From assembly GCF_056712565.1 (NCBI RefSeq), contig NZ_CM160072.1: 64,000 bases of DNA. One strand, written 5' to 3'. Position numbers: made by a program. Below, piece by piece: positions 11,741 through 17,700 of this stretch. The stretch's first letter is position 1, and every line of letters starts with the position of its first letter.

Positions 11741-14700
11741 TCAGCACCAAACCATTTTTCGGAAAGGGCTTGCAAAGTGCCATCTTTTTGCATTTCCGCA
11801 ATTGCATCATTCACCGCTTTCAGCAGGTCTTCATTTCCTTTACGCAGCGCCACGCCAGACTCCTGACGGGAGAATGCTTCACCGGTTACTGCCAGCGTAT
11901 CGTTGGTTTTCTTCACCAGATCCAGCGCCGCCAGACGATCAACGAGGATCGCATCGATACGGCCTACGCGCAGATCCTGATATTTGGTCGGGTCATCATC
12001 ATAGGTACGCACATCCACGCCCTGAACATTCTGACGCAGCCACTCTTCATAGTTGGTGCCCAGACCGACACCCACTTTTTTGCCTTTCAGATCATCAGCC
12101 GTTTTAATGGTGCCTTCGTTACCTTTTTTCACCAGCGCCTGAATACCGGAAATGGTGTACGGGGTAGAGAAATCGTATTTTTTCTTGCGCTCGTCAGAAA
12201 TGGTGACCTGGTTAATCACCACATCAATGCGTTTAGAGTCCAGCGACGCCAGCATACCGTCCCATTTAGTCGGTTTTAGTGACGCCTCAACGCCAAGATG
12301 TTTTGCCAGCTGTTGGGCAAATTCCACTTCAAAACCGGTTAATTTGCCGTCATCCCCCTGAAAACTGAACGGCGGATAAGTTCCTTCCAGCCCTACCAGC
12401 AGCGTGCCGCGCTCTTTGACTTTATTAAGCAGACCTTCATCTGCAAAACTTTTAACGCTCATACCCGCAACCAGCGCCACGGCCATCACACCCATCAATG
12501 CCTGACGTCCCAGATGTGCTAATTTCATATTTACCCCGAATGTTGTTATGTCTGTTTGCAGTGTAGAGCCATTGTTTGTAAACACAAAAACAACTCCGCT
12601 ACATCTTATTCTTATTTAATATATATCAGAAGCAGGTTGGCTGGAGGATTTCTGCACAAGTCCGGTACACGTTTGACGCTGATAGTGTTGATACTTCCGT
12701 AACGCGATGCGGTAATTGTTGGTGCTGGTGGAGGGCAGCCACGGGGCGAGGATTTCATCAAGGAAACCGTCCTGCAGCTGGTCGAGGGAAATATTTTGCT
12801 CGTGTAGATGATTCCCCAAACGGCGCAGACGAACGACATATTCACGCACCGTACCAGGGCTCATTTCAGTTTGCTCAAAAAGAAATTTCTTAAAGCCGAT
12901 AATATCGAAAAAATCACTCTGCGTTTTGCAATGTAAATCACCGCAAAATCGGCACAATGCCGCCCATGATTGTTGTTCCACTTGCCAGCCATTTTCATCA
13001 AGCAGCGTGTCCAGGCGGGAAATCTCGATTTTATTCACTATTTTGCCGTCGCGAACTAAGGTAATGCGATCGAGTAATTTACGGCAATGCGCGCAATGGG
13101 TCTGGCTGTGTTTAAAGTCTTTAAGATAGCGGCTTAATGGCCGTCTTTTCAGGTGCTGCACCATCATTAAGAACTCCTGGTAGTCAAAATTAAAGTGCGG
13201 CATTTACTGACGTTATAACTTACCCAGTTTAGTGCGTAACCGTTTAATAGCCTGGCTGTGTAACTGACTGACCCGCGATTCCCCGACCTCCAGCACCGCG
13301 CCAATCTCTTTGAGATTCAGCTCTTCCTGATAATAGAGGGTTAATACCAGTTTTTCGCGCTCCGGCAACGTTTCGATGGTTTCCATCACCCGCTGGCGCA
13401 GATTACTGTCCAGCAGTTGTTGTAGCGGGTTTTCTCGCTGATGATCATCAGTAACCAGTTCGATGCTATCGCCGTGCTCTTCGCGCCACTCATCGTAGGA
13501 GAAGAGCTGGCTGTTATTGGTGTCGAGCAACATTTGGCGATAATCGGCAATATCGATCCCTAAACGTTCCGCTACCTCAGTTTCCGTGGCGTTGCGGCCA
13601 AGTTCCTGCTCCAGTTGCCCTATTGCCTGTGCCACTTCACGCGCGTTGCGTCGCACGCTGCGCGGCACCCAGTCACGGCTGCGAAGTTCATCCAGCATAG
13701 CGCCACGTATACGCTGCACTGCGTAAGTTGTAAATGCCGTTCCTTGTAGGGCGTCATAGCGTTCGACGGCATTAAGTAACCCAATGCCGCCCGCCTGTAG
13801 CAGATCGTCAAGTTCCACGCTCGCGGGCAGTCGAACCTGCAGGCGCAATGCTTCGTGACGCACCAGCGGGACATAACGCTGCCACAGCGAGTGTTTATCC
13901 ATTACACCTTCAGCGGTATAGAGTGAATTCACGATAAACAGCCCTGCGTTATATGAGTTATCGGCATGATTATCCGTTTCTGCAGGGTTTTTAATCGGGC
14001 GATTAGTGGGTGAAATGAGGGGTTATTTGGGGGTTACCGGTAAATTGCGGGCAGAAAAAAACCCCGCCGTTGGCGGGGAAGCACATTGCTGACAAATTAC
14101 GCTTCATGTTGCCGGATGCGGCGTAACGCCTTATCCGGCCTACAAAAATCTGCAAATTAAATAAATTGCAATTCACCTTGTAGGCCTGATAAGCACAGCG
14201 CACCAGGCAATTTGGCGTTGCCGTCAGTCTCAGTTAATCAGGTTACGGCGATTAACCCTGCAGCAGAGACAGAACCTGCTGCGGTACCTGGTTGGCTTTT
14301 GCCAGCACGGAGTTACCGGCCTGCTGGATAATCTGCGCTTTCGACATGTTGGACACTTCGGTCGCATAGTCGGCGTCCTGAATACGGGACTGCGCTTCAG
14401 ACAGGTTGGTAGTGGTGTTGTTCAGGTTGGTGACTGCGGAATCCAGACGGTTCTGGATAGCACCCAGGGAAGAACGGAATTTGTCGATGGAGCTGATAGC
14501 GTCGTCCAGGGCAGCAAGCGGGTTGGTCGTTGCAGAACCAGCACTGGTAGTCTCAGTAGTGATTTTACCCGCGGAGTTCACATTTACAGCAGTACCAATT
14601 GCTGGAGCATAATCTTTATTGGTATCAGTCGCTGAAGCATACCCGGCAACAGTCACAGAGCCGTTATCCTTGTTAACGCTGTAAGAGACTGTATAGTCGG

Positions 14701-17700
14701 CAACGTTAGTAATACCACCTTTATCATCCACATAAGACTTCGCAGCATCACTGGATTCACCCGCGGTAAACCCAATAGTTTTGCTCAGTACACCGGAATT
14801 AAAGGTAATTGAAGATGTCGCGGCAGCCGCTTTGGTTTCGCTCAATACTACATCTTTACTCACTGTAGCCTGATAAGTAATCCCACCAGGGATTAACGGA
14901 GCTACTGGAGAGGTTGTCGCAGGAGTTGCTTTTGCGATAGTATATTCAGTGCCATTGAATGTCAGAGAAGCACCGTCACTACCTTCGCTCGCGGCTTTAA
15001 GCAGCGCTTTCATATCAGCTTTAGCTGCGCTACCAGCGTTGTTAGTCGTCAAGTTGCCTGCATCGTCTACGTATGCCTGGCTTCCACCGATGGTGATATT
15101 ACCTGCTGAATCCGTTTCGAAAGAAACAGTACCATCTTTTGTGGTGTAAGAACCATTAACAGATTTACCCACATCAGCATGAAGGGTGGCAGCTAACGCA
15201 TCACGTTTTTTAGCTGAATCAGTAGCCTGCGCCGCGGCGTCTACACCCGTACCAGCAGTAGATTTGGTGGTAGTAAAATCACCAGATTTAGCGTTGTAAG
15301 TATAATCTACGCCGCCAACGGTGACTTTATCGCCATTCCCTAATTTATCGAATGCAGCATCGGTAGTTAACAAGGTATTTTCGGTTTTCAGATCATAAAG
15401 ACCTGTCGTGGTGTTTAACTTCGCGCCAGCAGAAGTTAAATCACTTACCGTTGCAGCTTTGTTGGTAATAGTACCTTTACCATTTACGTTAAAACCATTC
15501 AGACCCAGAGTATCAGAATCGATTTTCTTCAGGTCGATAGTGATAGTTTCACCGTCATTCGCACCAACCTGAATTTTCATCGAACCGTCTTTTGCCAGTA
15601 CGTTCACGCCGTTGAACTGGGTCTGGCCGGATACGCGGTCAATTTCATCAAGACGGGATTTGATTTCGTCCTGAATGGAGTCCAGATCCGAATCAGAGTT
15701 AGTTCCGGTAGAAGCCTGAACCGTCAGCTCACGGATACGCTGTAAGTTGTTGTTGATTTCAGACAGCGCGCCTTCGGTGGTCTGTGCAACAGAAATACCG
15801 TCGTTGGCGTTACGTGCAGCCTGAGTCAGGCCTTTAATGTTAGAAGTAAAACGGTTAGCAATCGCCTGACCCGCGGCGTCATCCTTCGCGCTGTTAATAC
15901 GCAAGCCAGAAGACAGACGCTCGATAGAACTCGACAGCGCAGACTGGTTCTTGTTGATATTATTTTGAGTGATCAGCGAGAGGCTGTTGGTATTAATGAC
16001 TTGTGCCATGATTCGTTATCCTATATTGCAAGTCGTTGATTACGTTTTGGGTTTCCACCCGTCGGCTCAATCGCCGTCAACCCTGTTATCGTCTGTCGTA
16101 AAACAACCTTTAGAATTTTTTTCACAAACAGCCATTTTTTGTTAGTCGACGAAATACTCTTTTCTCTGCCCCTTATTCCCGCTATTAAAAAAAACAATTA
16201 AACGTAAACTTTGCGCAATTCAGGCCGATAACCCCGGTATTCGTTTTACGTGTCGAAAGATAAAAGGAAATCGCATGGCAAGTATTTCATCGCTGGGAGT
16301 CGGGTCAGGTCTGGATTTAAGTTCAATCCTTGATAGCCTCACCGCCGCGCAAAAAGCGACGCTAACCCCTATTTCAAATCAGCAATCGTCGTTTACCGCT
16401 AAACTTAGCGCCTACGGTACGCTGAAAAGCGCGCTGACAACTTTCCAGACCGCCAATACTGCATTGTCTAAAGCCGATCTTTTTTCCGCTACCAGCACCA
16501 CCAGCAGCACCACCGCGTTCAGTGCCACCACCGCGGGTAACGCCATCGCCGGGAAATACACCATCAGCGTCACCCATCTGGCGCAGGCGCAAACCCTGAC
16601 AACGCGCACCACCAGAGACGATACGAAAACGGCGATCGCCACCAGCGACAGTAAACTCACCATTCAACAAGGCGGCGACAAAGATCCGATTACCATTGAT
16701 ATCAGCGCGGCTAACTCGTCGTTAAGCGGGATCCGTGATGCCATCAACAACGCAAAAGCGGGCGTAAGCGCAAGCATCATTAACGTGGGTAACGGTGAAT
16801 ATCGTCTGTCAGTCACATCAAATGACACCGGCCTTGACAATGCGATGACGCTCTCGGTTAGCGGTGATGATGCGCTACAAAGTTTTATGGGCTATGACGC
16901 CAGTGCCAGCAGCAACGGCATGGAGGTCTCGGTCGCCGCCCAGAATGCACAGCTGACGGTCAATAACGTCGCCATTGAGAACAGCAGCAACACCATCAGC
17001 AACGCGCTGGAAAACATCACCCTGAACCTGAACGATGTCACCACAGGCAACCAGACGCTGACCATCACTCAGGACACCTCCAAAGCGCAAACGGCGATTA
17101 AAGACTGGGTGAATGCCTATAACTCGCTAATAGATACCTTTAGCAGCCTGACCAAATACACCGCCGTAGATGCGGGAGCTGATAGCCAGAATTCTAGCAA
17201 TGGCGCACTACTCGGCGACTCCACGCTGCGAACGATTCAGACGCAGTTGAAATCGATGCTGAGTAATACCGTCAGTTCTTCCAACTATAAAACGCTGGCG
17301 CAGATTGGTATCACGACCGATCCCAGCGATGGCAAACTGGAACTGGATGCCGACAAACTCACCGCTGCATTGAAAAAAGATGCCAGCGGCGTAGGTGCAT
17401 TGATTGTTGGCGATGGTAAAAAAACCGGCATCACGACCACCATCGGCAGCAACCTGACCAGTTGGCTTTCGACAACGGGCATTATTAAAGCCGCTACCGA
17501 TGGCGTTAGTAAGACCCTGAATAAGTTAACTAAAGACTACAACGCCGCCAGCGATCGCATTGATGCGCAGGTCGCGCGCTATAAAGAACAATTTACCCAA
17601 CTGGACGTTTTAATGACCTCGTTAAACAGCACCAGCAGCTACTTAACACAGCAGTTCGAAAACAACAGTAATTCCAAGTAATCAATATTCATCGGGAGAC

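Follow-up and report, generated by a model that had tools for sequence, protein, structure and literature searches.

Genotypic assignment of a 585-residue flagellin to H7 and its very probable CC95 extraintestinal pathogenic Escherichia coli background

The flagellin gene fliC was analysed in a 64,000-nucleotide (nt) stretch of contig NZ_CM160072.1 (NCBI RefSeq assembly GCF_056712565.1), hereafter the window, whose positions are used throughout. The open reading frame (ORF) at 14252-16009 on the minus strand is a real flagellin gene and not a chance ORF. By genotype its assignment is to H7, and comparison with complete genomes makes it very probable that this is the H7 allele carried by extraintestinal pathogenic (ExPEC) strains of E. 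coli in clonal complex 95 (CC95; ST95-type, phylogroup B2). The gene is already known; it is an ordinary H7 flagellin, with nothing new about it.

The ORF runs from ATG to TAA and encodes 585 amino acids (aa). Pfam searches placed Flagellin_N (PF00669) at residues 5-140 (E = 1.5e-46) and Flagellin_C (PF00700) at residues 499-583 (E = 2e-31), both above the curated cut-offs by far, with the enterobacterial FliC middle domain at residues 337-489 (E = 8e-22). The N- and C-terminal helical domains of the bacterial flagellin family (FliC/FljB) are therefore both present, and the gene has the position expected of a member: it belongs to flagellar region IIIa, has fliA and fliD as its neighbours and is preceded by a sigma-28 class-3 promoter. 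The product is identical to RefSeq WP_000079688.1, which is annotated at matching coordinates in strains E18055, UTI89 and S88.

For comparison, fliC of K-12 MG1655 (b1923; H48) measures 1,497 nt and 498 aa, its central domain being 87 residues shorter. The two genes share their locus, promoter type, conserved ends and a homologous FliX-type 3' untranslated region (3'UTR). Codons 1-175 (15485-16009, minus strand), which carry Flagellin_N and correspond to the conserved N-terminal D0/D1 filament core, are 93% identical to K-12 at the aa level, and codons 496-585 with the stop (14252-14524, minus strand), which carry Flagellin_C and correspond to the conserved C-terminal D1/D0 part, are 94% identical. 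Between them, codons 176-495 (14525-15484, minus strand), assigned to the variable outer domains D2-D4 and to H7 specificity, reach only 25%. The original prediction, made from the DNA alone, had placed a 585-aa FliC at exactly these coordinates, had set its length against the 498 aa of the K-12 H48 type and had described conserved termini around a long variable middle; all of this agrees with the ORF, the Pfam domains and the measured identities.

To determine the H type, the central region (14570-15472, approximately residues 180-480) was compared with 5,426 complete E. coli genomes, the reference set for all genome counts given here. Full-length matches were found in 491 genomes, 112 of them at at least 99% nt identity and 379 at 95-99%; among the matches listed, the lowest identity was 97.5%, shown by an allele longer by a single codon. 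A sensitive blastn search added only 33 genomes in the 60-80% identity range, and those among the matches listed showed approximately 70% (at most ~72%) nt identity over 16-18% of the query, leaving a wide empty gap between the H7 matches and everything else. The serotypes given in the record names of the matching genomes, again among the matches listed, were O157:H7, O55:H7, O84:H7, O1:K1:H7 and O2:K1:H7. The central region was 100% identical in the O1:K1:H7, O2:K1:H7 and O84:H7 records and 98.7% identical in the O157:H7 and O55:H7 records. For one of the 491 full-length matches, the record type is given as plasmid.

At the protein level, residues 1-585 aligned without gaps to residues 1-585 of PDB 7SN4, the cryo-electron microscopy structure of the filament of enterohaemorrhagic E. 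coli (EHEC) O157:H7 (Kreutzberger et al. 2022; PMC8931119), which bears out the remark in the original prediction that O157:H7 also has a 585-aa FliC. Identity extended to 581 of the 585 residues, the differences being S100T, T263A, K267S and S367T, three of which fall in codons 176-495. The H7 call had been coupled to the proviso that it would be overturned if the central domain matched some other H type whose flagellin is of similar length; that search was run, and only H7-bearing genomes matched.

The allele itself was then placed by its identity to individual strains. All 1,758 nt of fliC are identical to those of UTI89, IHE3034, NU14, PMV-1, UM146, S88, avian pathogenic E. coli (APEC) O1 and ATCC 11775, and the same sequence also occurs in many human, avian and canine isolates. 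Of these, UTI89, IHE3034, NU14, S88, APEC O1 and ATCC 11775 represent CC95 ExPEC; in UTI89 and S88 the gene also has the same neighbourhood and coordinates, with no difference inside it. The identity is not confined to fliC, as three blocks of the window each gave near-perfect matches to one common set of genomes. Over the full 64 kb, the CC95 genome of APEC E18055 (O2:K1:H7) differed by five single-nucleotide polymorphisms (SNPs) and one single-base indel in a poly-C length, corresponding to 99.99% identity. Over 50 kb, UTI89 (O18:H7) showed 10 SNPs plus 3 gap bases and S88 (O45a:H7) 11 SNPs plus 8 gap bases, so that the backbone agrees with all three genomes at the clonal level. UTI89 and S88 have been placed in CC95, the subgroups of which include O1:H7, O2a:H7, O18:H7 and O45a:H7 (Gordon et al. 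2017; PMC5451516).

Among genomes of named serotype, the nearest is O2:K1:H7, which was not among the example serotypes of the original prediction. An O type read from the nearest neighbours was considered and rejected, the differences over 50 kb numbering 4 for E18055 and 13-19 for the others; none was assigned, because this margin is small and the CC95 subgroups mix O1, O2a and O45a (PMC5451516).

Several small differences from the neighbours were noted in their own right. No exact match to the whole window was seen among the genomes of the collection, and the SNPs at 21125 (yedE) and 42201 (dgcQ) are absent from E18055, UTI89 and S88. A poly-C tract at ~49796-49809, between a porin gene (48544-49659) and hchA (from 50258), is shorter by 1, 2 and 3 bases in E18055, UTI89 and S88, respectively; these length differences could reflect a hypervariable homopolymer or sequencing noise. 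Upstream of rcsA, the copy number of a TTTAC pentamer (38290-38294) differs from that in S88.

The background was also approached through the high-pathogenicity island (HPI), cited in the original prediction as lying at asnT. The tRNA-Asn gene asnT, the HPI attachment site, was found at 58198-58273 on the plus strand, adjoining mtfA. It is followed by the left end of the HPI (58435-64000), comprising an integrase pseudogene (58435-59697, plus strand) and then ybtS, ybtX and ybtQ on the minus strand, with ybtQ cut by the window end. The integrase is of the P4 type; a 320-aa ORF is left (58654-59616), an 'internal stop' is annotated in a near-identical genome, and the HPI is presumably fixed in place. 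In E. coli, the HPI lies at asnT in nearly all strains (Schubert et al. 2009; PMC2606025). The HPI alone is not specific to ExPEC, since 80% or more of positions 50001-64000, a stretch including the asnT-HPI junction, is covered in 1,306 of the 5,426 genomes. The weight of the ExPEC argument falls on the clonal-level identity to CC95 genomes. The H7-type ExPEC background first proposed is upheld by the 100% identity of fliC to CC95 strains and the 99.99% identity of the window to a CC95 O2:K1:H7 genome, with the HPI following asnT.

The alternative that the H7 gene comes from an enterohaemorrhagic O157:H7 or O55:H7 background draws on the close resemblance of the flagellins, which have the same 585 aa, are 99.3% identical as proteins and share 98.7% of nt in the central domain. 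The comparison of the flanks refuted it. Within fliC there are 41 nt differences from O157:H7 ATCC 35150, and the backbone genes beside the HPI are 95.3-98.6% identical to O157:H7 while the identity to CC95 is 99.99%. In ATCC 35150, asnT leads directly to yeeJ and not to the HPI, and no HPI was found at the other three asn tRNAs of that genome. On the serU side, O157:H7 carries a prophage with tccP and espJ, whereas the window has no prophage at serU. Furthermore, the HPI markers irp2 and fyuA were absent from the O157:H7 isolates of a clinical series (PMC3765202), which together with ATCC 35150 is in keeping with the earlier statement that O157:H7 usually lacks the HPI. The probability left to an O157:H7 or O55:H7 origin is negligible.

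A different H type of coincidentally similar length is equally improbable, to the point of being discounted. Flagellins of similar length do exist: the record NZ_CP060946.1 ('E. coli O157:H7 str. EC10'), a 4.79-Mb urine isolate, has no H7 domain and encodes a FliC of 588 aa. This protein, however, shares only 54% identity across the central domain, and no non-H7 genome among the matches listed exceeded ~72% nt identity or covered more than 18% of the central region, so that the central-domain search refuted this explanation too. The O157:H7 label of NZ_CP060946.1 is probably wrong. The EC10 flagellin does establish that record names can mislead and that lengths around 585 aa are in themselves not diagnostic, and the original prediction had been right to caution against taking length as proof.

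Less readily dismissed, though still improbable, is the possibility that the genotype is H7 while the strain is non-motile (H-) or expresses another flagellin, in which case fliC would not determine the serotype. A few CC95 subgroup A isolates were O1:H- in the collection of Gordon et al. (PMC5451516), and the window contains neither the master regulators nor the greater part of the flagellar regulon. Against this, fliZ, fliA, fliC, fliD, fliS, fliT and fliE-fliR are intact in near-identical annotated genomes, the fliC promoter is intact and a single flagellin locus was present in all 40 listed genomes with identical fliC.

For the assignment to a CC95-type H7 allele, no sequence evidence to the contrary was seen in the window. 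Three limits apply to it. Serotype labels in record names can err, as the EC10 record with its different flagellin illustrates. The multilocus sequence typing (MLST) loci (adk, fumC, gyrB, icd, mdh, purA and recA) and the rfb (O antigen) and kps (K1) loci are outside the window, and CC95 membership consequently rests on the near-identity over 64 kb. Lastly, flhDC and the other flagellar regions also lie beyond the window.

The 41 differences from the O157:H7 ATCC 35150 allele were unevenly spread over the 1,758 nt. There were none in nt 1-129 (0% divergence), 24 in nt 130-520 (6.1%), 12 in nt 521-1440 (1.3%) and 5 in nt 1441-1758 (1.6%). In the 383-nt 3' flank, which extends from the 3'UTR as far as the first part of fliA, the count was 19 differences (5.0%), and the neighbouring backbone diverges by 1.4-4.7%. 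The 5' segment of the allele was at least 99% identical in 98 genomes only, the next best among the matches listed being 95.9%. The uneven distribution suggests a recombinational mosaic in which the H7-determining part would be younger than the split of the lineages. Specifically, nt 1-129 and the central and 3' part may have been exchanged between B2/CC95 and O157:H7/O55:H7 after the backbones split, with nt 130-520 and the 3'UTR being of separate and older descent, an account to which we give about even chances. Large recombinations of flanking DNA are known to spread the HPI, and as the distance between fliC and asnT is only 42 kb, exchanges of this kind could in principle be carried along with them. 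Mosaicism of fliC is not new, because recombination in this gene was described in the late 1990s to early 2000s.

Transcription of fliC by FliA, chaperoning by FliS, type III export and polymerization under the FliD cap are established features of the flagellar regulon, and the conserved ends of flagellin form the D0/D1 core, the exposed H antigen being its variable middle. In the window, FliA (sigma-28) would thus transcribe fliC from its class-3 promoter, FliS would chaperone the flagellin monomer, the flagellar type III apparatus would export it and polymerization would take place beneath the FliD cap. The ends (approximately residues 1-175 and 496-585) would build the D0/D1 filament core, and the ~320-residue middle would form the exposed outer domains D2-D4 bearing the H7 epitopes. 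In EHEC H7, domains D2-D4 dimerize into a mesh-like outer-domain sheath, this sheath is disrupted and motility falls when N319 and N323 at the D4 interface are mutated, and tumbles are longer with H7 flagellin (PMC8931119). The window FliC keeps both of these D4 dimer-interface residues, and three of its outer-domain residues differ from EHEC H7. By analogy, we infer that the window allele would build an EHEC-like outer-domain sheath; it would likewise be expected to be expressed, to confer motility and to react serologically as H7.

The regulatory elements and neighbours of fliC were located next to it. The fliC class-3 sigma-28 (FliA-dependent) promoter, TAAAGGTT-N11-GACGATAA, is an exact pattern match at 16086-16112 on the minus strand, ~77 nt upstream of the ATG, and 0 matches were expected by chance in 100 shuffles. 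A divergent sigma-28-type promoter facing fliD matched the pattern with one mismatch at 16205-16231 on the plus strand. The fliC 3'UTR (14055-14246, minus strand) is the counterpart of the K-12 small RNA FliX, with 183 of 193 aligned positions identical to b4827. It holds elements resembling repetitive extragenic palindromic (REP) sequences and terminates in a GC hairpin and T-run at ~14055-14078. Two Rfam candidates here, naRNA4 at 14101-14140 (35.8 bits, cut-off 59.5) and ES036 at 14146-14187 (29.7 bits, cut-off 37.6), were REP-derived and were rejected as RNA genes.

The gene order is fliZ-fliA-fliC / fliD-fliS-fliT, that of region IIIa. Downstream of fliC and on the same strand lie fliA (sigma-28; 13213-13932, minus strand; intact, 239 aa), fliZ and tcyJ (fliY). 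On the other side, fliD, which encodes the cap, fliS, which encodes the flagellin chaperone, and fliT (16275-18481, plus strand) diverge together with amyA; by ORF and annotation these three genes are intact.

Elsewhere in the window, the ybcL-containing remnant of the original prediction corresponds to a ybcM-ybcL-emrE block at 24989-26848 on the minus strand, located between a porin gene and fliE according to the annotation of near-identical genomes. Two extra porin genes, at 23405-24487 ('ompC') and 48544-49659 ('porin'), both on the plus strand, lie on either side of the fliE-R / rcsA / dcm segment. The former adjoins the ybcM-ybcL-emrE block, and the O157:H7 counterpart of the region of the latter is a frameshifted ompC-like gene. 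The yodC gene at 42682-42864 (minus strand) is a pseudogene with an internal stop, according to the annotation of near-identical CC95 genomes.

The value of these results lies in typing. They indicate that the window comes from an H7, CC95-type (UTI89/S88/APEC O1-like) E. coli and not from O157:H7. This poses no open biological question of its own; it aids the reading of the other findings in the window, namely the HPI and the ybcL block.

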